Shown: positions 35,260-64,000, numbered from the stretch's first letter. The stretch: 64,000 bases of DNA from an uncultured delta proteobacterium (GCA_963699755.1 CAVOVB010000003.1:192001-256000), one strand, 5' to 3'. Notes: generated by a model not told the origin, from the sequence alone. Translations and numbers: made by a program.

Positions 35260-35419
35260 AATACAGGCCGCTTGGAGCAATTTTCCAACAATTCTAAGCG
35301 GCTGCAGAATGATCCTATTGACGAGCAGGCCCTTGGTGAGGTTAGACTCAGTCCTCTGCGTGAGCCGAGAGTCCGGCGGTGTACTCCCCGTCCTGCCGGA
35401 GGTCGTACCAAGGAAACTG

Positions 35420-36535: not shown

Positions 36536-36737
36536 GTCACAGGTAGCCACGGCGGTAGCCGGTCGGACATTTTTGACCGAATCGGGGCGCTGGGCCATTT
36601 CCGCGCAATGGCGCCAAGAGCGTGAATCTTCTGCCTTTTGGCCTCGTCCCCCTACGGTGGCATGGGCTCTGCATCGAGTCGGCCCAGTCGGAGGACACGA
36701 AATGGATTCTTACGGTCACCCTAGGCAAACTTCGCGG

Positions 36738-45890: not shown

Positions 45891-46529
45891 ATGACCGACC
45901 GACACGCTTATTTGACGAACATCTTATTCATCGCGACCTGCCTGGCTGTCGGCTGCACCAGCGGGGGAAACCTCGGCTGCGGCAGTGACAGCGGCAGCAC
46001 GAGCACGCCCAGCCTCGACACCCAGCTGCTTGGTATCTACGGGCTCGACACGTATCAAAAGAGCGAGGACAGCTGCGACAACCTGGTGGACGTGGAAGGC
46101 GCTCCGAGTCGCCTTGCGCTTTACACCGTCCGCGCGACTGACGACCCCAACAAGGCCGTGATGGTGGGCCAGTTCTGCGGCAGTGCGCTCGATTGCCGGA
46201 GGAGGGTGGAGGATTTCCCCCAGCTCTTCAGCTACACGTTCCTGCAGGGGAGCGACGCAAGCGAATGGCAAGGCTGGGGGATCGCGAGCCAGGGAATGGC
46301 GGGCGATGAGTGTCTGGTCGAGGTACAGACCCACGTTCTGACTTCAGATGCGAACCGCGCGATCCGGATCGACACGAAGCAAGTGGAAACGCGGTACGAC
46401 TCGTCCGAGCCAGCGCCGGGTTCCAATGAGGTGACCTGCACCATCAGGGCTGCGATCGCTGCAATCAGCAGCGACTCGCCGTGCACCGTACAATTCCTTC
46501 TCGAAGCGACGTTCGAAGCGGAGCTTTGA
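45891..46529 (+). CDS. Hypothetical lipoprotein
   Basis: Lipobox AVGC; several Cys; no family recognised. Confidence 0.65.
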   Translation: MTDRHAYLTNILFIATCLAVGCTSGGNLGCGSDSGSTSTPSLDTQLLGIYGLDTYQKSEDSCDNLVDVEGAPSRLALYTVRATDDPNKAVMVGQFCGSALDCRRRVEDFPQLFSYTFLQGSDASEWQGWGIASQGMAGDECLVEVQTHVLTSDANRAIRIDTKQVETRYDSSEPAPGSNEVTCTIRAAIAAISSDSPCTVQFLLEATFEAEL

Positions 46530-48438: not shown

Positions 48439-51321
48439 TCAGCGGCGACGGCGTGACCGTCGAACGGCGAGCCCGGCGACCAAGATGAACATCAGCGCGG
48501 CCAGATTGCCTTTGCTCGATGCGCCGATGCGACTTGCCGCACAGGTGACCGTGTCGTTGAAATCGAGCAGCGTGTCGTTGTCGCGATCGATGCCCATGCG
48601 CCTGCCCGAGCCCGGTGGCACGCAGGTGAAGGTCACCGCCTGCCCGGGCTGCTGCGCGGCCGTGAGCAACTGTGCCTTCGTCCAGAGGGAATCTCCCACC
48701 AGGTCGCTCTCGAAGTTGTTTCCGCCGACGTAGAGCCAGCCGCGTTGTTCGTCGTTGACGACGCCCTTGGCGATCAAATCGCACTCTTTGACATCGCCGA
48801 GCGTGGGATCGGTATAGTACGTCGCATTCGCGCGCTGAATGAGCAGGTCGACGCGTGCAAGCATCGCCGAGCCGGTGTTGGCGGTCACGGTCGTCTGCTG
48901 GCCGACGATCGGCGCCAGGTCGCTGTCGAACTCCATGATCAAGGCCTCGAGGTTGCGCTTCTGGGTCGTGTTCAGGTTGAACACGTCGGCACTCAGGAAA
49001 TTGAACACGGTCGAGACGCCGCCATCATGTAGGAAGCCGGTGCCGCGAACCTGGTCCCCCATGAAGGAGCCATCGATGTTCGTGAAGAAGTCGGACGGCG
49101 CCTGACCGAACATGCCAACCTTCTGATAGGCGTTGCGGAGGTGCGCCACCTTGAACTCCATCTCCTCGTTCTCGAAGGTCGAAAATCCGGCGGTCCCAAA
49201 GAAACCCTGCGAACGATCGAAGTGGTGACAGCCCCGACAGGCAGCTACCGTGTCGGTGAGCGGCCCGTTCGCCGGGTTCCCCTGCGCATCGAAGCCAAAG
49301 GTGATCTTACCGGAGGCGGCTGCCGGGCTTAGCGAGTTGTCGAGCGCGCGGATTGGGTTCGGCGGGTAGGTGAGCTCAAGCACGAAGTCGGTGAAGTTCT
49401 GCATATCGGCCGGATCGAGCTCCCCTTCATCGCGCCCGATCAAGCCCGGGAAGGCCACGTTGAACTCGTTGAAGGCACGGTTGGCGCATGCCGGGTCCGA
49501 AGGTGTCGTTGCGCACTCGGGTCCCGTGCGGTCGCCTCGCCAGTGCATCGGCCCAGCCTTGGCCATGCCGCGGAAGCTCTGCGTCGTCATCGGGCCCTTG
49601 AGCGGGTCGAAGTCCTGGAGTCCCGGAAGGAAGCCGAGCAGGGGGAATTCGTTCGTCGGCGGTCTGGGATTCGGGTTTGCTGTCGGCGAGGCATCGGGAT
49701 CGCCGAGGTCCCAGGACAGGTCGTCCATGTCGCCGAAGACGTGACAGCCGGCGCAGCTGGCTTCGCCATTGCTGGAGGTGAGCTTGGTGTCGTAGAGGAA
49801 GTCACGCCCGGTCTTGATGAAGAGTGGCTCGGGGTTGTATCGGCCCGCGCCGATCGTGACGAAGCGGTCGCTCAGCCGGACGCTGTACACGGTATTGGTG
49901 CGGCGGCTCGATACCCAGAGAAAGCCGCGCGCTTCGTCCAGGACGAGCCCGGTCGGGCCCTCGATCGGAATCATGTTGGCGGCGCTCGGAACGAAGGTGT
50001 CGTTTTCGAGTTGCGCGGTGTCGTAGATCGCCACGGTGTTCGAGCCGAAGCCTGCCACATAGAGCGTCGTTCCATCGCTGCTGACGGCCATGTTCAATGG
50101 GGTGGCGATGCTCTTTTCTTTGACGCCCGCAGGAACGGGGCTGACGCCGTACGGTATGTGCTTGTTGAGGTGCCGTGGGGTGACGTTGCCCTGCGCGTCG
50201 ATGACGGTGATTCGGGCCTGATGCAAATTCCCGCGTACCGTTGCTGGGTCACCGGAGGGCTTGGGGCCGAGCTGATTGACGTAGTCGCCAAAGCCTTCGA
50301 ATCGAACCCGGTTTTGCGCGTCGGTGTTCGTGACGTAAAGCTTTCCGTTCGCCGGATTGACGATCATGTTGAAGAGGATCGTGCCGACGCCCGAAAACGA
50401 TTGGATCTCGCTCGGAGTCGCTGCGTTCGCATCGATTTTGAACACATCCAGGTCGGGGAGAGAGAAGCGGACGGCGGGGTTCCAGTTGTTCCCCATCTCG
50501 TCTTCCCAGCGACCGTTGGCTTCGTTGTAGCCGACGATGATTCCCGTTTCCCGGCTGGTGATGCCTTGGAAGTTGGTTTCCGGAAGCGGACGGCCGGCCG
50601 GGTAGGTCGTTCCCTCGATGTTGCAGGGGGCGGAGCCGTTGCAGACGAGGCCCTCGTTGATGGTGACGGTCCGATTCCCCGAGCGGTACACCGCGGCGTA
50701 GACCGTCGAGCCGTCGGGGGACGCGGTCAGCGCGCGAGGACGGTCGCCGAAGAGCCGGATGACCGTGAGCGGATTGCCTTGGAGCGAAGAGCCGAGATTG
50801 TTTGCATTGAAGACCCACACATCTGCACGACCTGTGCCCGGCACGTCATAGTCCCCATCGGGCCAGGGTGTGTTCTGTCCGCGGTGTGCAGTCGCGATGA
50901 AAGCACGGTTCCCGCCGGGACCCGCGAAGACGATGCCGCGAGGCTCATCCCCGACCAGCAGCGTACGGACGACGCGCGGTGGGTCGGACGCGACGTCGAC
51001 GACGCTCACGCTGTCCGAGAGATGATTGACCACCCAGACCTCGGAGTCGTTTCGCACGGCGACGGAGACCGGCTCGAGGCCCACGGGCACCAAGGCCAGG
51101 CTGGTGAGCCTCCCGGCCGGCGTCGGTTCGAAGATCTCCAAGGTGCCGTCCGGCGTATTGACCGCGAAGAGGCGAGTGCCGTCGGGCGACATCGCGATCG
51201 GAGTCACCGGGTCCGACTCGAAAAGGGTGTAGGGGGATAGCTGTGCAGCGGCGGGCGCTGGCTGCAAGACGGCGATCGGACACAGGACGAGAATCAGGAC
51301 CAAGAGATCGAGCTTGCGCAC
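48439..51321 (-). CDS. Secreted YVTN beta-propeller plus di-heme cytochrome c protein with MYXO-CTERM-like tail
   Basis: Signal peptide; VGLEPVSVA, VWVVNHLSDSVSVVD, LYVTN; CAGCH and CRGCH; GFLHDG; C-terminal CAA...hydrophobic...RRSRRRR; GTG start with GGAGG. Confidence 0.85.
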   Translation of the reverse strand: MRKLDLLVLILVLCPIAVLQPAPAAAQLSPYTLFESDPVTPIAMSPDGTRLFAVNTPDGTLEIFEPTPAGRLTSLALVPVGLEPVSVAVRNDSEVWVVNHLSDSVSVVDVASDPPRVVRTLLVGDEPRGIVFAGPGGNRAFIATAHRGQNTPWPDGDYDVPGTGRADVWVFNANNLGSSLQGNPLTVIRLFGDRPRALTASPDGSTVYAAVYRSGNRTVTINEGLVCNGSAPCNIEGTTYPAGRPLPETNFQGITSRETGIIVGYNEANGRWEDEMGNNWNPAVRFSLPDLDVFKIDANAATPSEIQSFSGVGTILFNMIVNPANGKLYVTNTDAQNRVRFEGFGDYVNQLGPKPSGDPATVRGNLHQARITVIDAQGNVTPRHLNKHIPYGVSPVPAGVKEKSIATPLNMAVSSDGTTLYVAGFGSNTVAIYDTAQLENDTFVPSAANMIPIEGPTGLVLDEARGFLWVSSRRTNTVYSVRLSDRFVTIGAGRYNPEPLFIKTGRDFLYDTKLTSSNGEASCAGCHVFGDMDDLSWDLGDPDASPTANPNPRPPTNEFPLLGFLPGLQDFDPLKGPMTTQSFRGMAKAGPMHWRGDRTGPECATTPSDPACANRAFNEFNVAFPGLIGRDEGELDPADMQNFTDFVLELTYPPNPIRALDNSLSPAAASGKITFGFDAQGNPANGPLTDTVAACRGCHHFDRSQGFFGTAGFSTFENEEMEFKVAHLRNAYQKVGMFGQAPSDFFTNIDGSFMGDQVRGTGFLHDGGVSTVFNFLSADVFNLNTTQKRNLEALIMEFDSDLAPIVGQQTTVTANTGSAMLARVDLLIQRANATYYTDPTLGDVKECDLIAKGVVNDEQRGWLYVGGNNFESDLVGDSLWTKAQLLTAAQQPGQAVTFTCVPPGSGRRMGIDRDNDTLLDFNDTVTCAASRIGASSKGNLAALMFILVAGLAVRRSRRRR

Positions 51322-51505
51322 GATGCACCTCCACGACGGGTATGAAATGAAACGGACCAAGTAAGGTGATGACCCTATCACCATCGGCCGGGTCGCGCCA
51401 AGCGCGTCAGCATCGACTCTCCGGGTCGCTGCACCATTTGCCGAAACGCCCCTGAAGCGGGGGCCGTCAGGCCTGACTCGGACGGACCCGTTGGCGCTCT
51501 TAAAC

Positions 51506-51541
51506 GCAAGAACCCGCGCACCTGAGCACGCGGGTTCTTGC
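51506..51541 (-). terminator. Intrinsic terminator after 51574..52311
   Basis: GCAAGAACCCGCG...CGCGGGTTCTTGC hairpin, T-rich on the minus strand. Confidence 0.75.
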
Positions 51542-51573: not shown

Positions 51574-52311
51574 TCAGGGGACCGTGATGTCCACGCCCGT
51601 GCCCTCGACGTCGAAGGTGCAGACCGACTCATCGACCGTGATGAGCGGGTTGCCACCGAGCGTGAGGTCGAGCGCGTAGGTGCCGTCCCAGTTCACGTTG
51701 TAGGTCGAACCAGAGGCACCGGTTGGGGTGACAGCCGCGCTTCCCTCGGTGATCTCACCAGGGGTGCCGATCGATAGGACGTCTCCGGTGGTGAAGGCAC
51801 CAATCGTCTGGCCCGTCGCTCCCGCCGTCAGCTCACTCTCGATGGGACCGCCCGTGGCGTCGGTGAGCACCGCCGCGATCGCCAGACCGCCAAGCTCAGC
51901 CGCGTTGCCCAAGGTCGGCAGCAAGAACTGCTGCGCTGCGACCGTCCACCCAGTGGTGACATTGTTCGAAGCATCGGCGGCCACATCCAAAGTGATCGTG
52001 ACACTGAGGTTGATGCTCGTGTTGAGCGCCGTCACGAAGACTTCGCAACCGCCGCCCGTGGCAGTCGGCCCACCGTTGGACCCCGCCGGTGTGGTGTTGG
52101 CTTCCCAGACCGTCGTACCACTGGCTCCACCACCGTCACCGCCGGTACCGCCTTCGCCGCCGCCACCGCCGCTGCCTGTGCTACCGCCGCTGCCGGTGCT
52201 GCCACCGCTGCCGGTGCTACCGCCGCTACCCGGCGGGGTGCTTTCATCATCCCCGCAGCCGAACATCGTCAGCGCGGCTCCGAGACCCAAAATCAATACT
52301 GTCTTTTTCAT
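51574..52311 (-). CDS. Lipoprotein: Gly linker plus one copy of the shared ~180-aa C-terminal domain
   Basis: Lipobox MFGC; WEANTTP...FLLPTLGNAAELG...NVNWDG...LTLGGNPL...CTFD; GAGGA RBS. Confidence 0.85.
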   Translation of the reverse strand: MKKTVLILGLGAALTMFGCGDDESTPPGSGGSTGSGGSTGSGGSTGSGGGGGEGGTGGDGGGASGTTVWEANTTPAGSNGGPTATGGGCEVFVTALNTSINLSVTITLDVAADASNNVTTGWTVAAQQFLLPTLGNAAELGGLAIAAVLTDATGGPIESELTAGATGQTIGAFTTGDVLSIGTPGEITEGSAAVTPTGASGSTYNVNWDGTYALDLTLGGNPLITVDESVCTFDVEGTGVDITVP

Positions 52312-52425
52312 GTTCCTCTTTCTCCCGCGTCATATAAGCAAACACGCCGCGGGATTTCCGCACAGGTTGGTGCCCGCGTCAAGTCTCTTTCGACAGATCC
52401 ACTGAACAAACGCTCCTTTTAAACG

Positions 52426-52456
52426 AAGAACCCGCGTGCCTGGGCGCGCGGGCTCT
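52426..52456 (-). terminator. Intrinsic terminator after 52492..54318
   Basis: AGAACCCGCG...CGCGGGCTCT hairpin, homologous to 51506-51541. Confidence 0.7.
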
Positions 52457-52491
52457 CACAGTGATGCTGCGATGGGCAGCTTTGTCTCGGG

Positions 52492-54318
52492 TCAGTTCAC
52501 GGCGAAGTCCACGCCCGCGCCTTGAGCGTCGAAGGTGCAGACCGACTGGTCGACCGAGACGAGCGGGTTACCGCCCAGGGTCAGGTCGAGGGTGAAGTTG
52601 CCGTCCCAGTTGACATTGACGGTCGAGCCCGTGCCACCTGTCGGGCCCGCCGCGCCCGAGCCTGCGGTGATCTCGCCCGGGGTTGCGATCGTCAGGGTGC
52701 TTCCCGTGATGTAGGCACCGATGAGCTGCCCGGTCGCTGCCGCGGTCAGCCCGCTTGCAATCGAGCCAGGGATTGCTCCGCCGACAGAGGCGCCCGTCAC
52801 GTCCGCAGCGATCGCCAGCGCACCGAGCTCAGCGGCGTTGCCCAAGGTCGGCAGCAAGAAGTTCCCGGCTGCGATCGTCCATCCGGTGCTCAGGTTGTTG
52901 GCGCCGTCCGAGACGACATCGAGGGTGATATCCACCTGAAGCTGGATGTTCGTGTTGAGCGCGGTCACGAAGACCGTGCAGCCGCCCGTCGCACCGGGGC
53001 CACCGCCAACCGGCGTGGTGTTCGCCCGCCAGAGGGTGCTGCCCGAACCGGCCTCGATGACCGGGTCCGAGGCGACCACGCACTCGCCGTTCATGCACGT
53101 GCCGGTGTTGTCAAAGCACAACCGGCCATCATCCGCATTGTTGAGGGTGCAGGCGTTGCTTTCACAGGCCGCCACTTGGCACTCGCCGCCGCCCGGACAC
53201 TGGGTCTCGTCTCGGCACTCGACGCACGCGTTGTCGACGCAGACGAGGTCACCGCAGTCGGCGTCTCCGTTGCAGTCCACGCAGGTGCCCGCGCCATCAC
53301 AAACGCCCGCGACGCTGTCGTTCAGGCAATCATCGCCCAGGGTGGCATCTTGCGACACACACACGCCTGCATCGCACGTGTTGATCGTGCAGTCGTTTTG
53401 GTCGTCGCAGTCGATGTTCATTGTGCATTCGGGCTGCCCGCCTGCGCCTCCCGTGCCGCCCGTGCCGACAGCGCCGCCAGTGCCAACTTCGCCTCCCATG
53501 CCGCCCATGCCGCCGGTGCCGACAGCGCCGCCGGTGCCAACTTCGCCTCCCATGCCGCCTGCGCCAGCTTCACCACCCATGCCGCCTGTGCCCGAGCCGC
53601 CCGTGCCACCGGTGCCGCCCTCGCCGGCGACGCAGGTGACGGGAATCGTCCACTGAGCCATGTCACAAACTTCGTCATTGTCGGTGACGCTGATGTTGAC
53701 GAAGTGATCACCCACGTCAACGCAGGTGTAAGTCGTCTCATCGGCGGCCGGGTCGGCGATGGTGCCGCCTGAGCTCGTCCAAGTGTACGTGATCGGATCG
53801 TTGTCGCGGTCGACGCCAATGGCCGAAAGGTCGATGTTGTTCCCGACCGATGTCTCTAGCGGCGAGACGACCGCCTTTGCGAGCTCCGCACAGATGTTGA
53901 ACATGCCGTTCACCCGAACCGCGCCGAGTCGCTGCGGAAGCTTACAGCGCAACATCACCATCACATTGGTCGTCTGGCCTGCCTCGACGTTGAACGGCTC
54001 CGAGCCCCTGCAGGTGGTCGTGCCGTCCACTGAAACCGCTTCTAGCGCGATCGTGTAGTCTTGGGGACCCGGCGGAAGCCCGAACACCTCGACGGATGCC
54101 GTCGAACCAGGCGCGCTCACGTTGATCGCGTCGGACATGTCCATCCCGTTGCCGGTGATGCGCCACTCCACGGTGTCGATCGTGATGTCGTCGGCGAGGA
54201 CGAGCTCGAGCGAGAGCCCGCCCGTCTCACTCGGCGCTGTGTCCGAAGAGCAGCCTGCGAACGCAAACGCAAACACTGTGCTCAGAACGAGGGAAGACAA
54301 CAAACGGTAACCGGACAT
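52492..54318 (-). CDS. Modular lipoprotein: type A N-module, Gly linker, Cys-rich repeats, one shared C-terminal domain
   Basis: Lipobox FAGC; GGAGG before ATG 54318; CDDQNDCT-type repeats. Confidence 0.85.
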   Translation of the reverse strand: MSGYRLLSSLVLSTVFAFAFAGCSSDTAPSETGGLSLELVLADDITIDTVEWRITGNGMDMSDAINVSAPGSTASVEVFGLPPGPQDYTIALEAVSVDGTTTCRGSEPFNVEAGQTTNVMVMLRCKLPQRLGAVRVNGMFNICAELAKAVVSPLETSVGNNIDLSAIGVDRDNDPITYTWTSSGGTIADPAADETTYTCVDVGDHFVNISVTDNDEVCDMAQWTIPVTCVAGEGGTGGTGGSGTGGMGGEAGAGGMGGEVGTGGAVGTGGMGGMGGEVGTGGAVGTGGTGGAGGQPECTMNIDCDDQNDCTINTCDAGVCVSQDATLGDDCLNDSVAGVCDGAGTCVDCNGDADCGDLVCVDNACVECRDETQCPGGGECQVAACESNACTLNNADDGRLCFDNTGTCMNGECVVASDPVIEAGSGSTLWRANTTPVGGGPGATGGCTVFVTALNTNIQLQVDITLDVVSDGANNLSTGWTIAAGNFLLPTLGNAAELGALAIAADVTGASVGGAIPGSIASGLTAAATGQLIGAYITGSTLTIATPGEITAGSGAAGPTGGTGSTVNVNWDGNFTLDLTLGGNPLVSVDQSVCTFDAQGAGVDFAVN

Positions 54319-54352
54319 GGGGGCCTCCATAAAACTCTCTTGGGGGAGGACG

Positions 54353-54445
54353 AAGCTACCACTGTCCGTCGAAGCTTTTCAAGAGTCTTTATTTGGGTCT
54401 TGCTGCAGTGCGGCGAAGCTCCTTCTCCTTGTGTGCTGGCTCACA
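54353..54445 (-). promoter_or_regulatory. Putative promoter TTGAAA-N18-TAGCTT with upstream box TGTGA-GCCAGC-ACACA
   Basis: -35 at 54377-54382, -10 at 54353-54358, box at 54430-54445 (minus strand). Confidence 0.6.
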
Positions 54446-54504
54446 GTTCGACGGCCAGAAGTACCGCGCGAGACGCAGGTCTAGTTCAATCCCGAGCACG
54501 CCGG

Positions 54505-57500
54505 CTACGGCTGATTCACAGCAAAATCGACGCCGGACCCCTGGACGTCGAAGGTGCAGACCGACTCGTCGACGGTCACCAGCGGGGTCCCTCCGAGGGT
54601 CAGCTCGACGGTGAAGGTGCCGTCCCAGTTCACGTTGATGCTCGAGCCGGTCGGAACGATGCGCGCGCTGCCCTCGCTGATTTCCGTCGGCGTGGTCAGG
54701 ATGAAGACGTCGCCGACGAGGAAGGCGCCGATGAGTTGCCCGAGCGCCGCCGGGTTGGCGCTGCTCGGAATCGCGCTTGGCGTTCCGTTGCTGACCTGCG
54801 CGCGGATATCGATGCCGCCGTACTCCGCCGCGTTGCCGGCAGACGGAAGAAGGAAGTGTTGCACTTCGGCGGTCCAAGCGGTGCTGATGTTGTTGGAGCC
54901 GTCGGAGCTCACGCCGAGCGTCAAGGTGACGTCGAGAGGGAGCACGGTGTTGAGCACTGTGACGAAGACCGCGCAGCCAGCGCCGGTCGCGCTCGGCCCG
55001 CCACTCGATCCAAGCGGGGTCGTGCGCGCTTGCCAGACCGTCTGGCCGCTGCCCGCCGCAACCACCGGGGCTGCGACCTCGATACAGACACCGGCCCCGT
55101 CACACTCCCCGAACGGGCCCGTGCCCGGATTGCAGAACGTGCCGGCGGGCTCGAAGGACGATGCCGGGCAGATGCCGCCTGCGGCCGAATCACAGGGCGG
55201 GTCGGCGGTGCAGTCATTGCCGTCGTCGCAGACGATGCCCAGGCAGTTGTCGATGCAGCTTCCGCTCTGGCAGGCTCCGTTGCCGCCGTTGCATGCGGTT
55301 CCGTCGGGCTGGTTGTCCGGCGGCACAGGCTCGCATTGCTCGGTCGATGGGTTGCAGGTCTGTGGCAGCCTGCACTCGGTCCCGGCACTGCAGCCGTCGA
55401 TGGTGCAACCCGCCGGCACGCAAGCGCCCGCCTGACACTCGCCGAGGCCACTGAGGCTCGCCGCGCTGCTGCACGCGGTTCCATCCGCCGCCGGGGCATT
55501 GACGCAGACGGCAGAGCCGCTCGAATCATCGCAGCTATCGACCGTGCAATCGTTGCCATCGTCGAAGCAGTCGGGCGGCGGGGGAGGGGTTGCCGTCGGG
55601 CTGCACGGCAGGTCGCCGAAGCTGACGCCCGAGCCCTGGACGTTGAACAGGCATGCGTCCTGGTTGAACTCGAGCAAGGGGTTTCCGCCGAGGGTGAGCT
55701 GCAGGTCGAACTTACCGTCCCAGTTGACGCGTAGGCCCGGAGCGCCAGGCGTGACCGCCGCAACGCCTTGGGTGATCTCGCTTGGGGTCCCCAAGGTCAG
55801 CAGGCCTCCGGTGACGAAAGCGCCGATCAGCTGTCCGGTCGCCGCTGCATTCGCTGTGCTTGGAATGCTGCTCGGCACGCCGCCCGTGACGATGGCGTTC
55901 AAGCTCAAGCTGCCGTACTCCGCTGCGTTGGACAGGGTGGGAAGAAGGAACTGCTGCAGCGAGACGGTCCAATCGGTGGCGAAGTTGTTGTTCCCGTCGG
56001 ACGTCACGCCCAATACCACGGTCGTGTCGAAGTAGATGGTCGTTCCGATCACGGTCGGATCAACCGCGCAGCCCCCGCTCGTCGCCGTTGGCCCTCCAGT
56101 CGACCCGAACGGAATCGTATTGGCAACCCAGGTCGTCGTGCCGCTGCCCGCCGGGATGATGGGAACCTCGAGACAGGCCCCGTTCTGGCAAGAGCCGGCG
56201 CCCGTGGCCGTGGGCGCAGTGCTACAGGCCGTTCCGTTTGCAAGCGGCGCATTCACGCAGACCGCCGCGCCGCTCGAGTCGTCGCAGCTATCCACGGTGC
56301 ACTCGTTCCCATCGTCGAAGCAAGCCGCGGGCGGGGGAGGGCTCGCCGTAGGGTTACACGGCGAATCGCCGAAGCCGAAATTGATATCGCCGCCGATCAC
56401 GTCGAACTCGGTGGTGTCCTGGTCGATGGTGAGGAGCGGGTTGCCGCCGAGCGTCAGCTCGATGCTGAAGTTCCCGTCCCAGTTGACGCGCACACTCGGA
56501 CCGGTGGGGGTAATCGTGGCGCTTCCCCGGGTGACCTGGCCGGGCGAGCTGAGGGTCAGAGTGTCTCCGTTGAGGAAGGCGCTGATCGGCTGTCCCGTCG
56601 CGGCCGGCGTGAAGGTGCTCGGGATGAAGCTCGGCGTCCCACCGGTGACGACGGCACCGATCGACAAGGCGCCGAGCTCGGCGGCGTCGCCCACGGTCGG
56701 AAGCAGGAAGTTCTGAAGCTCGACTGTCCAGTCGGTCGTGAAGTTGTTGTTCCCATCGGAAGTCACGGTCAAGGTGATATCGACCTGCAATTCGATGGTC
56801 GAGTTGAGCGCAGTCACGAACACCGTGGCGCCGCCACCGGTCGCGGTTGGGCCGCCGTTGGACCCCGGCGGCGTCGTATTGGCGCTCCACGTCGTGGAGC
56901 TGCTGCCGGCGGGGATGGTGCCTGCCGTGTTGCAGACTCCGGACTGGCAGGCGCCCACGCCCGCAGCACACGGCGTGCCGTCGGGAATAGGGTTGTTCAC
57001 GCACAGCGGAGGGCCCGGAGTGCCGGACGACAAGTCGCAAAAATCTGTCGTGCAATCGTTGCCGTCGTCGCAGTCGTCGCCTAGGCAGCCGTCGTCGCCC
57101 ACAATGGTCAGAGCGACCTCTTTGGTCTTGTCGCAGTCGACGTCGCCGTCGGTGGTCACCGCGGTGCAGGTGATGGAGTCACCCGGGGTCGCGGGGACGT
57201 TCGGAGTGTTGGGATCGCCGTCGTCGTCGACCGTTGCGCACGAGACGAAGAAGCCGCCGACGCCTGGGGCAAGGGCGCCAGGAGGCGGATCGCCGATGTT
57301 GCCGAGGGTGTCACCCGAGAAGGTGCAGCTGGCAGCCGGGTTGAGGCCATCGCAGCTAATCGCACACGCGCCGAGGGTGCTCGCGCAGGTGACCGTGGTC
57401 GAGACGCCGGGGTCCGGACCGGGCGTGCAGCTCAGGCCGGTGGGTGTCGGGTTGCAGGTCTGCGGGTCGCAGCTGGTGCCGCACTGGCTGTCGCCATCGC

Positions 57501-58239
57501 GGAAACGCACTTGACAGGCCGTCGCCAACACGTCGCCAACGGGGGGAATCGTGCGAACGTCGAGCTCGGAGTCGATGCAGTTCAGGACGAAGAGGTCGGG
57601 GCAGAAGTTCGCCACGTTGAACGAGAAGTCCCCGTCGAGGTCGAGCATGCCGACCGGCGCCTGGAAGCTGATCCCGCAGTACATGAGGACGTTGACCTTG
57701 GTGACCGAGTCCGCTGCGATGTCGAAGGTCTCGGTCGCCGAGCAGATGACCTCGCCGTCGCCGTCACGCGCGCGGAGCTGCACGGTGCAGCCGGCGGTCG
57801 GCGGCAGGTCCATGAAGCCCTGCCAGACGTAGACCTCCGAGAGGTCCGGGCCGAAGTCCTGGTTGCTGACGCCGCCAGACGCGGTGTCGAGAACCTCGAG
57901 CACACCGCTGATGGTCACGTCGTCCGCGAAGCTCGCGTTGTTGTCGAGGAACGGCCCGTTGTCGGCGCCGTCGTTACACGCGATGGTGTATTCGACCACC
58001 TGGATGTCGAAGGCCGCCGGCTGGGGGGTGCCGTCGGGGGCTGGGGACTGACCGCCGTTGTTGGGAATCACGACATTGAGCTCGGTGTTGCCCACGGAAG
58101 GTTCTGCGCCGCCGTTGCAGCCGACCAACGCGGCTAAGCACAGCGACCCGAACAATCGACCGACAAGCATCAGCGAAGGGCGCGAGCCAAACGCATCGCA
58201 TGGCGCTCCGAAAGCTTTGGCGCCGACTGCAATAGGCAT
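54505..58239 (-). CDS. Modular lipoprotein: type B N-module, Cys-rich repeats, three copies of the shared domain
   Basis: Lipobox LVGC; copies at ~56375-56920, ~55620-56165 and ~54505-55070 separated by DDGNxCTxDxC repeats; start 58239 or 58170. Confidence 0.85.
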   Translation of the reverse strand: MPIAVGAKAFGAPCDAFGSRPSLMLVGRLFGSLCLAALVGCNGGAEPSVGNTELNVVIPNNGGQSPAPDGTPQPAAFDIQVVEYTIACNDGADNGPFLDNNASFADDVTISGVLEVLDTASGGVSNQDFGPDLSEVYVWQGFMDLPPTAGCTVQLRARDGDGEVICSATETFDIAADSVTKVNVLMYCGISFQAPVGMLDLDGDFSFNVANFCPDLFVLNCIDSELDVRTIPPVGDVLATACQVRFRDGDSQCGTSCDPQTCNPTPTGLSCTPGPDPGVSTTVTCASTLGACAISCDGLNPAASCTFSGDTLGNIGDPPPGALAPGVGGFFVSCATVDDDGDPNTPNVPATPGDSITCTAVTTDGDVDCDKTKEVALTIVGDDGCLGDDCDDGNDCTTDFCDLSSGTPGPPLCVNNPIPDGTPCAAGVGACQSGVCNTAGTIPAGSSSTTWSANTTPPGSNGGPTATGGGATVFVTALNSTIELQVDITLTVTSDGNNNFTTDWTVELQNFLLPTVGDAAELGALSIGAVVTGGTPSFIPSTFTPAATGQPISAFLNGDTLTLSSPGQVTRGSATITPTGPSVRVNWDGNFSIELTLGGNPLLTIDQDTTEFDVIGGDINFGFGDSPCNPTASPPPPAACFDDGNECTVDSCDDSSGAAVCVNAPLANGTACSTAPTATGAGSCQNGACLEVPIIPAGSGTTTWVANTIPFGSTGGPTATSGGCAVDPTVIGTTIYFDTTVVLGVTSDGNNNFATDWTVSLQQFLLPTLSNAAEYGSLSLNAIVTGGVPSSIPSTANAAATGQLIGAFVTGGLLTLGTPSEITQGVAAVTPGAPGLRVNWDGKFDLQLTLGGNPLLEFNQDACLFNVQGSGVSFGDLPCSPTATPPPPPDCFDDGNDCTVDSCDDSSGSAVCVNAPAADGTACSSAASLSGLGECQAGACVPAGCTIDGCSAGTECRLPQTCNPSTEQCEPVPPDNQPDGTACNGGNGACQSGSCIDNCLGIVCDDGNDCTADPPCDSAAGGICPASSFEPAGTFCNPGTGPFGECDGAGVCIEVAAPVVAAGSGQTVWQARTTPLGSSGGPSATGAGCAVFVTVLNTVLPLDVTLTLGVSSDGSNNISTAWTAEVQHFLLPSAGNAAEYGGIDIRAQVSNGTPSAIPSSANPAALGQLIGAFLVGDVFILTTPTEISEGSARIVPTGSSINVNWDGTFTVELTLGGTPLVTVDESVCTFDVQGSGVDFAVNQP
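57114..58052. repeat. Direct repeat copy 1 (~939 bp), apparently identical to 59792..60730
   Basis: Offset 2678; off-frame ORFs in both copies translate identically; divergence begins at both edges. Confidence 0.9.
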
Positions 58240-58320
58240 GAGTCAGCAATACGCCCTTTCGTCCAGCGCCGTCAATGACATCAGCGACAGCAATCCAACG
58301 TCCGAATCCGACCATCGCTC

Positions 58321-58356
58321 CCGCAGCCGCAGCCGCAGCCGCAGCCGCAGCCGCAG
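58321..58356. repeat. Simple sequence repeat (CCGCAG)6
   Basis: Read directly; intergenic, upstream of the 54505..58239 gene. Confidence 0.9.
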
Positions 58357-58593
58357 CCACGGCCGCCGCTCGCGCTGGCACTGCCGCTGACACGGACGGT
58401 GATGCAGCCAGGTACCTCGACTTGTACGCAGGGGGGCGGCTCGGGATGGGCAGTACAGCGATTGGGTCGAGCCTAGCCGTAGGTCGTTTTGGAGAGTTGG
58501 GGGGCGAGTGGGTCCCAATCGCGAGCACGCCCGTCGCGAGCCGCCCTCCGATGGCGCAGTTGCGCAACACAGTTGCTATCGCGGCCCTATAAC

Positions 58594-58628
58594 GAGAAAA
58601 CCCGCGAGCCGAAGCCCGCGGGTCTCTC
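58594..58628 (-). terminator. Intrinsic terminator after 58659..60857
   Basis: GAGAAAACCCGCG...CGCGGGTCTCTC hairpin with T-run on the minus strand. Confidence 0.75.
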
Positions 58629-58658
58629 AGTGTGTCGCTGCTTAGCAGCGTGTTGGCG

Positions 58659-60857
58659 TTACTGGACTAGGAAGTTGACGCCCGTGCCCTGGTTGTCGAA
58701 CACGCAGACCGACTCGTCGACCGTCACGAGCGGGTTGCCGCCGAGCGTGAGGTCTAGAGCGAACGTGCCGTCCCAGTTGACGTTGACCGTCGAGCCTACG
58801 CCACCGGTCGGCGTCGCCGCAGCCAAGCCGTTGGTGATCTCGCCAGGGCTCGAGATGACGAGGTTGTTACCCGAGATGAAGGCACCGATGAGCTGCCCGG
58901 TCGCTGCCGCGGTCAGGCTACTCGGGATCGATGCCGGGGTCGCGTTCGTCACGTTTGCGGCAATCGCTAGAGCACCGAGCTCCGCTGCATTGCCAAGGGT
59001 CGGCAGCAGGAAGTTCGCTGCGAGGATCCCCCAGCCCGTGCTCAGGTTGTTGGCACCGTCCGACACGACGTCGAGGGTGATGTCCACCTGGAGCTGGATG
59101 TTGGTGTTGAGCGCAGTCACGAAGACCGTGCAGCCGCCCGTTGCACCGGGGCCACCGCCAGGCGGGGCGGTGTTCGCCTGCCAGAGGGTGGTGCCAGAAC
59201 CGGCCGCGATGACCGGGGGTGTGGAGCACACGCCAGCGTCACAGGCGCCGCCAGCCGGTGGCGAGCACGCGGTGCCGTCGGCCGCGTCCTGCGAACCGCA
59301 CACGTACGGCGAGACACCGGTGTTGCAGAGGCCGACCTGACAATCGGTAGCCGTGCCCACATCCGGACAGTCGGCGTCCGCCTGGCAGGCGTCGCTGCTC
59401 GCGCAAACGCCGGCGGCGTTGCAGGTGCCGACACCGGAGCCGACGCCGGAGTCGCAAGCGCCGCCTAGGTTGGTCGGAGCCTGGCTGCATGAGCCGCCAG
59501 CCTCACAGGTGCCGACGGTGCAGGGGTTGCTGTCTTGGCAGAACGCAGTCGGATCCGGCTGCGCGTTGCAGTCCGTTGAAAAGCAGACTCCACCGGTACA
59601 TGTGCCGGGGAAGCCGCCGCCGTCGGTACAGGCAGTGTTATCCGGCAAGCTCGGGTTGGTGCAGCAGTTGGCCTGTGTGCCGTCGCAAGTCGCGTCGACG
59701 CAGACGTCGGCGGTGCAGGTATTGCCGTCGGCGCAGCTACCGCCGCCTGCCGCGAAGTTCTGGCAGGGCGAGAGACCGGCGATGGTCAGGTCGACCTCTT
59801 TGGTCTTGTCGCAGTCGACGTCGCCGTCGGTGGTCACCGCGGTGCAGGTGATGGAGTCACCCGGGGTCGCGGGGACGTTCGGAGTGTTGGGATCGCCGTC
59901 GTCGTCGACCGTTGCGCACGAGACGAAGAAGCCGCCGACGCCTGGGGCAAGGGCGCCAGGAGGCGGATCGCCGATGTTGCCGAGGGTGTCACCCGAGAAG
60001 GTGCAGCTGGCAGCCGGGTTGAGGCCATCGCAGCTAATCGCACACGCGCCGAGGGTGCTCGCGCAGGTGACCGTGGTCGAGACGCCGGGGTCCGGACCGG
60101 GCGTGCAGCTCAGGCCGGTGGGTGTCGGGTTGCAGGTCTGCGGGTCGCAGCTGGTGCCGCACTGGCTGTCGCCATCGCGGAAACGCACTTGACAGGCCGT
60201 CGCCAACACGTCGCCAACGGGGGGAATCGTGCGAACGTCGAGCTCGGAGTCGATGCAGTTCAGGACGAAGAGGTCGGGGCAGAAGTTCGCCACGTTGAAC
60301 GAGAAGTCCCCGTCGAGGTCGAGCATGCCGACCGGCGCCTGGAAGCTGATCCCGCAGTACATGAGGACGTTGACCTTGGTGACCGAGTCCGCTGCGATGT
60401 CGAAGGTCTCGGTCGCCGAGCAGATGACCTCGCCGTCGCCGTCACGCGCGCGGAGCTGCACGGTGCAGCCGGCGGTCGGCGGCAGGTCCATGAAGCCCTG
60501 CCAGACGTAGACCTCCGAGAGGTCCGGGCCGAAGTCCTGGTTGCTGACGCCGCCAGACGCGGTGTCGAGAACCTCGAGCACACCGCTGATGGTCACGTCG
60601 TCCGCGAAGCTCGCGTTGTTGTCGAGGAACGGCCCGTTGTCGGCGCCGTCGTTACACGCGATGGTGTATTCGACCACCTGGATGTCGAAGGCCGCCGGCT
60701 GGGGGGTGCCGTCGGGGGCTGGGGACTGACTGCCGTTGTTGGGAATCACAACGTTCAGCTCCGTGTTGCCTGCAGTACCGCCCTCGCCGCTTGTGCAGCC
60801 GGCTAGGGCCCCGATACATGCAAGCACGATCCATGGGGTAAATCGTGTCTTAGTCAT
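58659..60857 (-). CDS. Modular lipoprotein: type B N-module, Cys-rich repeats, one shared C-terminal domain
   Basis: AAGGAG RBS, MTKTRF...LAGC lipobox; shared domain at ~58659-59215. Confidence 0.85.
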   Translation of the reverse strand: MTKTRFTPWIVLACIGALAGCTSGEGGTAGNTELNVVIPNNGSQSPAPDGTPQPAAFDIQVVEYTIACNDGADNGPFLDNNASFADDVTISGVLEVLDTASGGVSNQDFGPDLSEVYVWQGFMDLPPTAGCTVQLRARDGDGEVICSATETFDIAADSVTKVNVLMYCGISFQAPVGMLDLDGDFSFNVANFCPDLFVLNCIDSELDVRTIPPVGDVLATACQVRFRDGDSQCGTSCDPQTCNPTPTGLSCTPGPDPGVSTTVTCASTLGACAISCDGLNPAASCTFSGDTLGNIGDPPPGALAPGVGGFFVSCATVDDDGDPNTPNVPATPGDSITCTAVTTDGDVDCDKTKEVDLTIAGLSPCQNFAAGGGSCADGNTCTADVCVDATCDGTQANCCTNPSLPDNTACTDGGGFPGTCTGGVCFSTDCNAQPDPTAFCQDSNPCTVGTCEAGGSCSQAPTNLGGACDSGVGSGVGTCNAAGVCASSDACQADADCPDVGTATDCQVGLCNTGVSPYVCGSQDAADGTACSPPAGGACDAGVCSTPPVIAAGSGTTLWQANTAPPGGGPGATGGCTVFVTALNTNIQLQVDITLDVVSDGANNLSTGWGILAANFLLPTLGNAAELGALAIAANVTNATPASIPSSLTAAATGQLIGAFISGNNLVISSPGEITNGLAAATPTGGVGSTVNVNWDGTFALDLTLGGNPLVTVDESVCVFDNQGTGVNFLVQ
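59792..60730. repeat. Direct repeat copy 2 (~939 bp)
   Basis: Matches 57114..58052. Confidence 0.9.
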
Positions 60858-60927
60858 TCTTTCGCTCCTTGAATTGGATAAATCACTACGACTAGCGCAG
60901 CGGTTCGTGAACGGGTTCACGGAGGAG

Positions 60928-61058
60928 GTGCTATCTCAGCACGTTTCGCGATGTCAACAGTTTCTGTTTCCACTTTGATCGCGCGTACGGCCTCAGGCCG
61001 ATCTGTGTGAGGAGAGATACAATTGCGCAGAAAAACCTACGCGGTGAGCCGGCTTACA
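60928..61058 (-). promoter_or_regulatory. Putative promoter TTGACA-N18-TAGCAC with two degenerate CRP-type boxes
   Basis: -35 at 60952-60957, -10 at 60928-60933; boxes TGTGA-GGAGAG-ATACA (61006-61021) and GGTGA-GCCGGC-TTACA (61043-61058). Confidence 0.55.
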
Positions 61059-61310
61059 GTTGGTGCGCCTTCACCGGTGCTCGGTGGCGGAAATGCAGAG
61101 CAATTCAGATTGAAGGCCTGGCGTCGCGACGGCGGTCCGGGGATCTTGATGCACCACGAGTCGTTGACGGGATTCGGACTGCTCGCCCGTCCAGAGTCCG
61201 CGCGCTCAAGCTCCGCGCTGTTCGAAGATCGCTCCGAGCGAAGCCCGACGTCCGAAAAGATCCAATGATGCGCTGGAACCGGACGCGCGACCTGAGGGGA
61301 CGGGAAAAAC

Positions 61311-61970
61311 CTACTGAATGAGGATCGTGCCCGAGCCGACGCGTGGGGTTGTCCCGAGATCGACACAGGTGCCGTCGATCTGAATGACTTCGCCGTTTTC
61401 GATCAGTGTTCGGTCGTACGGCTCATTGACGCCGCAGGGACGAGCGTCAGGCTCGTCGGAGCATTGGGCGAGGTCGAAGACCACCGAGCGCGCGTCGCAA
61501 TCAAGGCCACACAAGGTCAGCCTCATGAAAAAGCGGCCTCGCGTGCCTGGGTCGGTTTCGAGCAGGAGCGAGATCACTTCGTTCCCGGGGGTCTCGACCT
61601 CGTCGACGAAGACCACGTCGCTAGGCGTTGAGGTGTTGACCAGCTCGACCTTGACGCGGCGCGTGGCGCGATTGACGGTGACCTCGGCCTCGATCGGTGC
61701 TCCCGGGCTCGCCTGGGCCTGCCCCACCGTGGATTGCACCGCGATGCCCGTGAGCAGGAAGATGGGCGGGCTCTGCGCGGGCAGGTCCGGCTGGTCGGCG
61801 GGGAAGCTCGGCTGAATGCAGCCGCCGCCCACCCCGCCGTCGAAGCCGATGTTGATCACGTTCGTGGGCTGACGTGCGCCGCCGCCGGCATCCTTACAAC
61901 TGATCAGAAACGAGCAGACGACGGGAATGAAGAAGAGAGCTAGCGCGGAACGCAGTGGATTAAGTTTCAT
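61311..61970 (-). CDS. Hypothetical lipoprotein
   Basis: AAGGA RBS; lipobox LISC; beta-rich with Cys pairs. Confidence 0.65.
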   Translation of the reverse strand: MKLNPLRSALALFFIPVVCSFLISCKDAGGGARQPTNVINIGFDGGVGGGCIQPSFPADQPDLPAQSPPIFLLTGIAVQSTVGQAQASPGAPIEAEVTVNRATRRVKVELVNTSTPSDVVFVDEVETPGNEVISLLLETDPGTRGRFFMRLTLCGLDCDARSVVFDLAQCSDEPDARPCGVNEPYDRTLIENGEVIQIDGTCVDLGTTPRVGSGTILIQ

Positions 61971-62033
61971 AACGGTCCTTTGGGGAGAATTGACAAGACT
62001 AGACGGACATGCCTTTGAGCTCAAGGGGACTCG

Positions 62034-62663
62034 CTAGTCGGACGGCCTGACAGGAAAGCGGGTCGTGAATCCGCGCAGCTCAGCACTGATGCAATCGGTC
62101 GGCACCTCGACATCGCCGAGGACAAGAGAGATCTGCTCGAGTGCGAGGGCGAGCTCGACTTCGCTGGCGCCCTCCATCGCTGAGGTCGCGGTCGTTGCGG
62201 GGTCTAGCTCGATGCGATGCGGGCCCGCGACTCCGTTCTGGTCGGTGTCGAGCGTGAGGTCGAGGTCGTTGACCCCGTTCGTCAAGGAAGCTTCGAGCAT
62301 CGAAGGGGTCGCGCCATCGAGCGAGGTCGTGATCTCAATCGAATTGACGTCGATGACGTCGAATCCATCGTCGATCAAGGCGAGTGACGCGACTTCGTCG
62401 AAGATCACCGAAGCGGAAAAGGTCAGGTCGACTGAGGTGGCTACGGTGTACGGAGCGCTCAGCAGGTAGGCAAGCTCGATGGTAATGTCGAGAAGCAAGG
62501 GATCGCGGTCGACGGTATCGATCGTACAGCGCAGGGTATAAGAGCCTTCTTGCATCAAAGCGCTTCCGCCGCTTCCGCCAGCCCCGTGTGCTTCGCCATT
62601 GTCGTCGGCGCAGCTCCAGAGCACCGCAAGCAGGAGCAACGAACCATGACCGAGAAGCCTCAT
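62034..62663 (-). CDS. Hypothetical lipoprotein, beta-rich single domain
   Basis: Lipobox LWSC, Gly linker, two Cys bracketing a ~170-aa domain. Confidence 0.65.
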   Translation of the reverse strand: MRLLGHGSLLLLAVLWSCADDNGEAHGAGGSGGSALMQEGSYTLRCTIDTVDRDPLLLDITIELAYLLSAPYTVATSVDLTFSASVIFDEVASLALIDDGFDVIDVNSIEITTSLDGATPSMLEASLTNGVNDLDLTLDTDQNGVAGPHRIELDPATTATSAMEGASEVELALALEQISLVLGDVEVPTDCISAELRGFTTRFPVRPSD

Positions 62664-62778
62664 CGCGCCGAGCTTGGCGCGCCGCGGGCCGGTCAGCAAT
62701 GTCACCGGCGAGGAACCTCATGACCGTTTCTGGCGATCCCAGGCGTCGGCACCGGTCGTCGCACCCTGTCGGAGGGTG

Positions 62779-62872
62779 TGTGAGCCTGCTCACAGAAGCC
62801 GCACAAACCGAGAACGCGCCCCGAGAAGGCATCGAGTTTGAATTGATCTGAGGTGCCGATGCGAGGTAGGTT
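62779..62872 (+). promoter_or_regulatory. Perfect CRP-type box TGTGA-GCCTGC-TCACA with putative promoter TTGATC-N18-TAGGTT
   Basis: Box 62779-62794, -35 at 62843-62848, -10 at 62867-62872. Confidence 0.7.
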
Positions 62873-62923
62873 CCTCGCCTCCCGTCTCTTGAAACTTGGG
62901 CACTGCCCTGCCCACTGAAATTG

Positions 62924-64000
62924 ATGTCGCAAAACTCCTTCATTCGAATGGTAGTGCTGTCCTCTGCCGCATTGTGCGCGGCATGTGACGGTGGCGGCCC
63001 CGCAACGTCAGCCACGGACGCCTCCGACGAGACCGAGATCAATCTCGTCATTTCTGATCCAGCGACGGCAGCGGAAGATCTCGCGATGCTGATCGATTTC
63101 GTGAGCTACCGGATCAGCTGTCCAGCAAGCGGCGAGACCCCTTACGACGACTCGGTCGACATCAGCGGGGTCTTTGAAAGCCATCTGGATCAAAACCCGG
63201 CGGTTTGGACATTGGTTTCAGACCTTCCGCTTTCGCAGTGCACGATCGCGCTCTGGGTCTTCTACGAGGACGAGGTCGTCTGCTCGGGGAGTCAAGCGCT
63301 GCTCATCGCGGAGAACGAACCCTCGGCGCCCAACAAAATCAACATCGACCTCGAGTGCAGTCTCAGCGTGATCCCGCCGTCGGGCGACCTGGACATCGAC
63401 AGCTCGTTCAACCTGGTACACGGCAACTACTGCCCACAGCTCTTTTGGCTGGGCGCGTATCCATCACCCGACCCGACGGTGATGAACGTCCAGACTTCGT
63501 ACATCGACCTCGACGGCACCTGTGGTCAGAACTGCGATCCGACGATCTGCGATTTCACCGCGAACCCTCCGGTCTGTAACCCGGCTCCGGACCCCGGCCT
63601 GTCCAGCACACTCACCGCGCCGGCTGGCAATGGCAGCTTCGGTGACGTCACCGCGACCGACACGACCTATGCCTGCGACCCGCTCTTGCCAGGTCCAACC
63701 GAGATCTGCGTCTTGGTGAGCGACGGGGACAACGACTGTGACCGGATGCGCTGCATCACCATCGAATGCCCAGACCTGTGTGAAGGCGTGGACTGCAGCG
63801 ATGGAAACGAATGCACGCGGGACCTCTGTAACCCGCTCGACGGCTCGTGCAGCAACGTCGACGCGCCCGACGGGATTGCGTGCAATGCTTGCAACGACAC
63901 CTGTCAGTCGGGTGCGTGCGACCCGGGCGTGCCGTTCACTGCGGTTCAGACGGGCGATGACATGATCCTCAGTTCCACCCAGCAGCAGTACAGCGCCACC
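62924..64000 (+). CDS. Modular lipoprotein, type B-related N-module, partial (runs off window end)
   Basis: Manual translation MSQNSFIRMVVLSSAALCAAC...TEINLVI...VSYRISC...GDLDIDSSFNLVHGNYCPQLF...CGQNCDPTIC...PDPGLSST...SDGDNDCD...CSDGNECTRDLC; open to the window end. Confidence 0.8.
   Translation, partial: MSQNSFIRMVVLSSAALCAACDGGGPATSATDASDETEINLVISDPATAAEDLAMLIDFVSYRISCPASGETPYDDSVDISGVFESHLDQNPAVWTLVSDLPLSQCTIALWVFYEDEVVCSGSQALLIAENEPSAPNKINIDLECSLSVIPPSGDLDIDSSFNLVHGNYCPQLFWLGAYPSPDPTVMNVQTSYIDLDGTCGQNCDPTICDFTANPPVCNPAPDPGLSSTLTAPAGNGSFGDVTATDTTYACDPLLPGPTEICVLVSDGDNDCDRMRCITIECPDLCEGVDCSDGNECTRDLCNPLDGSCSNVDAPDGIACNACNDTCQSGACDPGVPFTAVQTGDDMILSSTQQQYSAT

Follow-up and report, generated by a model that had tools for sequence, protein, structure and literature searches.

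What purpose may be served by consecutive lipoprotein genes whose products differ in their upstream parts and all end in the same domain? This question is raised by an array of four such genes in a stretch of 64,000 nucleotides (nt) (GCA_963699755.1 CAVOVB010000003.1:192001-256000; in the following, the window), which is part of the 5.35-Mb genome of an uncultured sediment myxobacterium (G000). The array represents a conserved locus in an uncultured genus of the Polyangiales, and its C-terminal domain, here named the head, belongs to a single family within each array and to different families in different genomes, a concerted exchange that is not visible from the window alone. With moderate confidence, the array is interpreted as a polymorphic display, that is, as a set of lipoproteins sharing one head that would likely serve as strain-specific recognition or adhesion tip at several distances from the membrane.

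Array genes and their products

By listing and translating open reading frames (ORFs), four consecutive lipoprotein genes spanning positions 51574-60920 were delimited on the minus strand (lengths in amino acids, aa):

51574..52311 (-), P0001, 245 aa: lipobox, 44-aa Gly-triplet spacer and one head, without N-terminal module
52492..54330 (-), P0002, 612 aa: lipobox, Ig/PKD-like module of type A, Gly-triplet spacer of 73 aa, Cys-rich stalk and one head
54505..58239 (-), P0003, 1244 aa: lipobox, type-B module and three units of Cys-rich stalk plus head
58659..60920 (-), P0004, ORF of 753 aa: lipobox, type-B module, Cys-rich stalk and one head

The likely start of P0004 is the ATG at 60857 (732 aa), because the database protein P0013 begins there. 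In gene order, the lipoboxes near the N-terminus read LTMFGC, FAFAGC, ALVGC and ALAGC; in all four proteins the lipobox Cys falls within the first 19-42 residues, ends the signal peptide and is followed by Gly, Ser, Asn or Thr and then by acidic or Gly-rich sequence. The proteins terminate 1-3 residues past the head, and their membrane anchor is the N-terminal lipobox. In both module types, A and B, an Ig-like domain comes first and a PKD-like domain, with weak PKD hits, second.

When searching the whole genome by tblastn with the C-terminal 185 aa of P0001, six head copies were found in the window at E values from 1e-50 to 1e-112:

51577..52131 (-), head copy 1, alpha family, P0001
52498..53046 (-), head copy 2, P0002
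54517..55050 (-), head copy 3, P0003, C-terminal one of its three heads
55618..56145 (-), head copy 4, P0003, middle one
56377..56904 (-), head copy 5, P0003, first one; here alone both conserved Cys residues are lost (Ala and Thr instead)
58665..59198 (-), head copy 6, P0004; the sequence modelled below corresponds to 58662-59219 (mean confidence 97.1)

ORFs, lipoboxes and tblastn hits thus bear out the initial annotation, which had described four consecutive minus-strand lipoprotein genes with a common C-terminal domain of about 180 aa, six copies of it in total, and differing upstream parts (no module, type A or type B, with Gly or Cys-rich spacers). Outside the window, a seventh copy lies on contig C1 (64.5% identical to the P0001 head), where the paralogue P0005 consists of a lipobox, a 91-aa Gly spacer and a head 95% identical to that of P0002. 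A distant eighth copy (25.6% identity) on contig C7 belongs to P0006 (L002:7723-8565, minus strand), a lone lipoprotein with a distinct Cys-rich N-terminal part and its own head relatives P0021, P0023 and P0028.

The upstream parts of P0003 and P0004 are related at the DNA level:

57104..58092 (-), type-B N-terminal module of P0003: 982 of 989 nt identical to 59782-60770
59782..60770 (-), type-B N-terminal module of P0004: 99.3% DNA identity to 57104-58092

Hence, the nucleotide identity initially claimed for these two modules applies nearly, not strictly. The head of P0004, on the other hand, is 81% identical to the P0002 head and 84% to that of P0005, compared to 61% for the last P0003 head, so that P0004, combining it with the N-terminal module of P0003, is indeed the mosaic it had been taken for.

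Polymorphic toxins have a conserved N-terminal part followed by an exchangeable C-terminal cassette, and recombination at the conserved junction is presumed for them. The array proteins might be compared with lipoprotein toxins of the SitA kind (PMC5562445, PMC8546572), in which a conserved N-terminal escort would carry an exchangeable toxin. The lipobox, the conserved N-terminal part, the strain-variable C-terminal domain and the myxobacterial host are in favour of this likeness. The array, however, shows neither immunity genes nor a catalytic signature: the intergenic gaps of 174-419 nt hold a terminator and the upstream region of the next gene but no fitting ORF of at least 100 aa, and neither conserved catalytic-type residues nor a Pfam toxin family are found on the heads, although a missing signature alone proves nothing. 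Moreover, the same cassette is present on every array gene and three times in tandem within one chain, and the head is a Gly/Thr/Ala-rich beta-sandwich with a predicted disulfide. A toxin function is therefore considered very improbable.

Head families in orthologous loci

Orthologous loci were fetched from the genomes G014, G062, G063, G023 and G050, and further loci, including those of G020 and the L029 record, were compared; identities of locus proteins given here and below refer to the relatives' proteins versus those of the window. The neighbourhood kept in the relatives comprises one or two type-B genes, a type-A gene, a gene without module and conserved flanking genes. Counting G000, the type-B module is present in 37 and the alpha head in 6 of the 55 genus genomes, and the alpha head in none of the 16 genomes from other families of the order.

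In all eight syntenic loci with at least two complete array genes (window, G014, G062, G063, G023, G050, G020 and the L029 record; array genes B, B, A and without module), every array gene ends in one and the same head family. Within a genome, the last 170 aa show pairwise identities of 57-95%. Between genomes, only the pairs G000-G014 (41%), G062-G063 (45%) and G020-L029 (84%) can be aligned in this part, plus a partial alignment of G062/G063 with G020/L029 (43-57%). Four main families, one of them with a sub-type, can be distinguished:

alpha heads: G000 (the window family), and G014 as second sub-type with an extra Cys-rich insert
gamma heads: G062 and G063, about 290 aa; a related form in G020 and the L029 record
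delta heads: G023
beta heads: G050, about 200 aa, filling the whole array of this genome

The head family does not follow genome relatedness. The nearest of the fetched relatives is G023 (beta-propeller protein 73%, P0074 71%, Big_5 lipoprotein 62%, A-module 66% identity; gene positions are listed below), yet its delta head cannot be aligned with that of the window, whereas the more distant G014 (Big_5 51%, P0074 43%, A-module 53%, B-module 56-57%) bears alpha heads like the window. P0074 and the other conserved neighbours, in contrast, track genome relatedness and not the head family, and searching these neighbours for co-variation did not reveal any head-specific partner.

In a maximum-likelihood tree of 59 alpha heads, the seven close copies of G000 are placed in one sub-type clade (26 rows, Shimodaira-Hasegawa-like approximate likelihood ratio test [SH-aLRT] 98) and all four G014 heads in another (24 rows, SH-aLRT 96). 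Within the first of these, the heads of P0002, P0004 and P0005 form a tight recent clade (SH-aLRT 98) with differing N-termini, while each P0003 head groups with the head at the corresponding position in P0011 and, in part, in P0012. Trees of the modules are incongruent, upholding the mosaic view over plain duplication.

Use of a common head apparently extends to other loci. Gamma heads occur widely (in 28 of the 55 genus genomes), often with many copies, and dense runs of five to six gamma-head genes are found in G011 (contig C1, 227-242 kb) and G061 (contig C4, 195-211 kb), so that shared-head arrays appear to be a common trait in the genus. Lone type-B genes occurring elsewhere (L040:1361-5026, L041:1348-4989, L042:2-3184, L026:9704-12910 and L037:9791-12766) carry two further tail types, …SQAIVSLTNAAALLN and …DIPLSDHYGMRSVI.VP; hence, the set of ends is larger than the families described here. 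The 534-aa database protein P0043 possesses an internal beta-family domain and a C-terminal alpha head, each preceded by a Gly-triplet spacer, which shows that a single chain can unite different head families. Alignment of the family profiles with hhalign gave a probability of 56% (E 1.1e-4) for alpha versus beta and of 92% (E 5.9e-7) for beta versus gamma/delta, and no match of alpha to gamma. This suggests one old, very distant superfamily, which is not established and on which the present interpretation does not rely.

In line with the initial annotation, which had not recognized the C-terminal domain as a named family, neither Pfam nor NCBIfam models match the head when scanning the four array proteins and 48 family members (Pfam at E ≤ 1). 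The head is rare: of 1.84 billion representatives searched by profile, only 62 contain it at E ≤ 1e-3, and in 40 of the 61 proteins listed by a local hmmsearch it ends at most 5 residues from the C-terminus. Proteins with several copies (P0003, P0011 and P0012) all have exactly three. The head is combined with a lipobox and Gly spacer alone, with type-A or type-B modules, with Cys-rich repeats or, in P0014, with long Gly-rich repeats that appear beta-helix-like by eye and give no Pfam hit. A pattern-based locus search with the head profile returned no relative among 69 matches in species-representative genomes; the genome-wide search did find relatives. Two candidate links to named families were dropped. 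DUF6801, proposed by the ESM Atlas at a score of 0.86, is below the lead level of 0.9, and the corresponding model PF20611 finds no head in G000; a connection to DUF5801 via P0069 (E 3.3e-5, six short stretches) is weak and probably due to repeats.

Recombination and a possible head cassette

Three of the array genes are followed by the same terminator hairpin:

51511..51534 (-), conserved terminator hairpin after head 1, CCCGCG..CGCGGGTT
52429..52452 (-), the same hairpin after head 2
58599..58622 (-), the same hairpin after head 6; its motif also follows heads of other families in relatives

It is part of a tail of about 70 nt past the stop codon of P0001, P0002, P0004 and P0005 that consists of a small hairpin, the GC-rich terminator hairpin and a T-run, and is missing behind P0003. 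In five other genomes, the motif follows alpha, beta, gamma and delta heads. A relaxed pattern has nine matches in the whole G000 genome, five of them at the four head terminators, because the palindromic one behind P0001 matches on both strands. On the upstream side, the stalks of the alpha array end in the conserved sequence …C-x-x-x-P-[VI]-I-x-A-G-S-G.

That the paralogues recombine follows from the near-identity of the two B-modules together with the head clade of P0002, P0004 and P0005. Stalk end and terminator could bracket the head as a cassette and serve as recombination anchors, allowing the head to be swapped between them. A newly acquired head might then spread across the array by gene conversion.

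Active gene conversion among paralogues and a head polymorphism incongruent with relatedness would also be expected if the heads were a passive, fast-evolving coat or decoy without any binding function, its diversity being selected by phages, predators or grazers and the likeness within an array being due to gene conversion; the absence of conserved polar pocket residues fits this explanation as well. However, uniformity of the family has outlasted divergence down to 57% identity, suggesting constraint rather than accident, and the graded stalk lengths and the chains with three heads are hard to reconcile with a plain coat. We therefore regard it as a rather unlikely alternative to the display of a recognition tip.

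Predicted fold of the head and conserved residues

With an alignment of 48 rows, AlphaFold predicts the head as an all-beta structure of eleven strands and two short helices (predicted local distance difference test [pLDDT] 97.1, predicted template modelling score 0.91), that is, with confidence, a beta-sandwich; a poor model obtained with 8 rows (pLDDT 55) was not used. Of the 48 alignment rows, 35 have Cys30 as well as Cys172 (numbered as in the modelled piece). Of the others, one has lost both (the first P0003 head), one has Ser/Cys and 11 are truncated fragments. This joint presence or loss supports a disulfide joining the start of the sandwich to its end. The positions conserved to at least 80% are occupied by Gly, Cys, Pro, Leu, Asn, Phe, Ala and Ser. 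Among them, no cluster of acidic, basic or His residues and no catalytic-type residues are found in the head family, and the head therefore looks like a structural or binding domain rather than a catalytic one.

A PDB search with head sequence profiles did not give any significant match. At the level of structure, the best match by three methods, and the only clear solved look-alike, is PDB 3LSO (VIA-align wide search, Z 8.9, root mean square deviation [rmsd] 3.5 over 146 residues; VIA-align second look, Z 9.7, rmsd 3.2 over 145 residues; Foldseek, E 3.1e-3, probability 1.00, TMq 0.49). This uncharacterized structural-genomics entry, a 'putative membrane anchored protein' of Corynebacterium diphtheriae, is envelope-anchored like the array proteins and only 12-14% identical to the head; it gives a fold class, not a mechanism, and a full-text search by entry code did not turn up any paper on it. 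Further matches do not exceed Z 6.8 (a portion of TcdA, the rim of MspA, ApaG, ears of adaptins and domains of adhesins), scores that the tool assigns to common arrangements, and a Foldseek search of viral structures returned nothing at E ≤ 1e-3.

Among the low-scoring neighbours are CBM21, CBM9 and Ig-like domains of glycosidases (Z 4.5-5). Together with the beta-sandwich fold and a weak GH43 hit of the neighbouring gene product at 46557, they might suggest that the heads bind substrates or glycans in the manner of carbohydrate-binding modules on nutrient-capturing lipoproteins, with families being swapped according to the niche. These Z scores, though, also are those of common arrangements, and neither a glycoside hydrolase nor a TonB-dependent receptor or transporter is conserved in the neighbourhood. 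Moreover, a conserved aromatic platform is lacking, as W13 and W63 of the window copies stay below 80% across the family. Binding of substrates or glycans thus appears unlikely.

Even less probable, and hardly credible in our view, is the assembly of the array proteins into pili. The initial annotation had considered lipoprotein pilins polymerizing by strand exchange. In the type V pili of Bacteroidota, the pilins FimA and Mfa1 are lipoprotein precursors with beta-sandwich domains, and the array proteins resemble them in having a lipoprotein signal peptide and a beta-rich domain; in addition, the 8-row profile gave weak FimA hits against the PDB (E 0.15-2.7). These hits, however, vanished with the 48-row profile and are treated as composition noise, a Pfam fimbrillin match is missing, and pilin structures are reached only at Z 4.5-4.7 (SpaD). 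Pfam scans of the window, including 41 further ORFs, did not detect any pilus assembly, usher, chaperone or secretion genes. The predicted monomer is complete, with its N- and C-terminal parts joined by the Cys pair and without sign of an open groove, and heads also occupy internal positions in the three-headed chain. The phylum, finally, is a different one. The pilin proposal has thus found no support.

Stalks

In the spacers, Gly holds one phase of a three-residue period over 12 (P0001), 21 (P0002), 28 (P0005) and 41 (P0008, a headless relative described below) consecutive triplets, compared to 4.8-8.7 triplets when these segments are shuffled:

53422..53640 (-), Gly spacer of P0002: 21 Gly triplets versus a shuffle mean of 5.3

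Triplets of the kind GMT, GMV, EVG and AVG stay in phase, and spacers of the relatives show the same pattern. This build recalls C1q/TNF-like proteins and BclA, where a collagen-like stalk carries a globular C-terminal head. Gly at every third residue over 12-41 triplets, a C-terminal beta head and exactly three heads in multi-head chains are in line with such an organization. The Gly-triplet stalks, together with the rule of one or three heads per chain, may point to trimeric assemblies. Unlike collagen-like stalks, however, the spacers are of the type (G-G-X)n and almost free of Pro and charged pairs, and a TNF/C1q jelly-roll chain is not among the listed fold matches. The Cys-rich parts are made up of repeats of the type D-G-N-x-C-T-x-D-x-C (by eye), with only sub-threshold Dicty_CTDC hits in Pfam (20.9 bits versus a cut-off of 27); TIGR02232 had no hit on the four array proteins in the NCBIfam scan.

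Function and comparison with known systems

Anchored by the lipobox in the outer membrane, as predicted, the array proteins, with their disulfide-rich extracytoplasmic stalks, would face outward. Lipid-anchored stalks presenting one tip domain at several heights and valencies, as initially put forward, fit the architecture of the window genes as well as the orthologous arrays of the relatives. Selection would then keep an array on one head family if all of its members have to meet the same partner, be it a common ligand or each other. A weak sign of transcription is given by contigs of four metatranscriptome runs (three studies; sediment and estuary) that match P0001-P0004 at 95-100% identity, several without mismatch; they may stem from DNA carry-over, and the parts of the stretch left uncovered by them carry no conclusion. 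Sediment DNA runs (X1, X2, X4 and X5) contain 27-67% of the sequence words of the window.

The closest functional analogue is TraA of Myxococcus xanthus, a polymorphic receptor for outer membrane exchange whose variable distal domain sets homotypic recognition (PMC6372800). Both are myxobacterial envelope proteins with a membrane anchor and a Cys-rich stalk, with repeats noted by eye in the array proteins, bearing a strain-variable distal domain. TraA, however, starts with a type I signal, varies in a PA14-like domain near the N-terminus and is anchored by a C-terminal MYXO-CTERM tag, whereas the array proteins have an N-terminal lipobox anchor and a C-terminal variable head and show neither a PA14 match nor a MYXO-CTERM tag; these defining sequence features of TraA are absent from them. 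In addition, the variation of TraA is described there as point polymorphism within one domain family of a single gene, while in the array whole unalignable head families are exchanged on two to four genes at once.

The array could even constitute a multi-gene 'greenbeard', in which heads of the same family bind each other in trans between cells or in cis as small oligomers (perhaps trimers, in view of the Gly-triplet stalks and the three-headed chains), every paralogue would have to carry the same family for this reason, and a strain would change its social identity by replacing the head cassette array-wide. Such homotypic binding is a tentative and, on present sequence evidence, unlikely extension of the polymorphic display.

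Several observations weigh against a surface-displayed recognition tip. Outward exposure of the array proteins is itself only inferred; we know of no export signal for surface lipoproteins in this group, and a search for Slam (PF04575) did not give a match in G000, with control genomes being silent too. Among the conserved neighbours, no ligand or partner was identified, and the fold does not disclose a function because the nearest structure, 3LSO, is uncharacterized. The genome itself is a metagenome bin with an estimated contamination of 9%. G000 also possesses a beta head on P0073 and a gamma head on a lone C7 lipoprotein, hence uniformity holds per array and not genome-wide, and at the non-syntenic locus L042 the tails of its B gene and its A gene differ. 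Finally, identities of only 57-95% within arrays and the positional pairing of the P0003 and P0011 heads indicate that uniformity is at the family level and old, and not the result of continual homogenization. The lone C7 lipoprotein, encoded at about 6270-7196 (+), consists of a short Gly spacer and the gamma-family head.

Neighbouring genes

Flanking genes kept in the orthologous loci are the following:

45891..46529 (+), small lipoprotein, 36-44% identity
46557..48434 (-), Big_5 lipoprotein, 48-62%, with the weak GH43 hit mentioned above
48439..51384 (-), beta-propeller protein, 63-73%
61311..62024 (-), P0074, small lipoprotein beside the type-B genes in all fetched orthologous loci, 42-71%, no known family
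62034..62705 (-), P0073, lipoprotein with short Gly/Ser spacer and beta-family head; relatives' versions 49-51%
62921..64000 (+), P0009, cut by the window end; lipoprotein with Cys-rich part, kept in the locus, 57-70%

The 981-aa product of 48439-51384 has an N-terminal beta-propeller (Lactonase/YVTN repeats) and, by eye, the CxxCH motifs SCAGCH and ACRGCH. Its C-terminus, composed of a Cys, a hydrophobic helix and an RRSRRRR tail, resembles a MYXO-CTERM-type sorting signal by eye; NCBIfam sorting-tag models did not hit this protein, with only weak hydrazine-synthase-like hits being obtained.

Relatives of the N-terminal modules had initially been placed at 35420, 44103 and 62924. This holds for the first, a type-A module, and for the last, P0009, whose module is type-B-like (28-30% identity to type B), while 44103-45500 has only the PKD-like sub-module in common with the array. 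The first of these genes lacks a head:

35309..36535 (+), P0008: module of type A, with 42% identity across 228 aa, and Gly-triplet spacer of 131 aa with 41 triplets; head absent

Its (G-G-X)n spacer runs straight into the stop codon, and an overlapping frame (36144-37316, plus strand) ends in a secreted SRPBCC (Polyketide_cyc) protein with a probable start near MSWLTLPG. The region 35309-37316 may represent an array member in decay, or the repeat may contain a frameshift. Similarly, the type-A array gene of G062 is split into overlapping frames of 413 and 456 aa (L022:16018-18385, plus strand), owing either to a frameshift within the Cys-rich stalk or to an error of assembly there. Positions 1-25000 of the window encode ordinary metabolic functions without relation to the array, among them Rnf subunits, a 1663-aa pyruvate:ferredoxin oxidoreductase-like protein, an M1 aminopeptidase, DUF3604 and HupE/UreJ.

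Significance

Modular surface proteins with exchangeable ends have been known before. A full-text search of a limited literature collection did not retrieve a conserved array of two to four paralogous lipoproteins that differ in length and always share an end domain, with this domain being replaced family-wise between relatives. With the present analysis, at least four domain families without Pfam or NCBIfam model are named, one of them with a confidently predicted fold, and a concrete model for their recombination, using the stalk junction and a conserved terminator, is offered. The array is a candidate system by which strains in a large uncultured branch of the Myxococcota could achieve recognition or adhesion, a phylum whose social behaviour is, to our knowledge, otherwise known only from cultured Myxococcus. 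If the heads of one family indeed bound each other, the greenbeard array would provide myxobacteria with a second system of kin recognition that has no relation to TraA, in uncultured Polyangiales of marine sediments.

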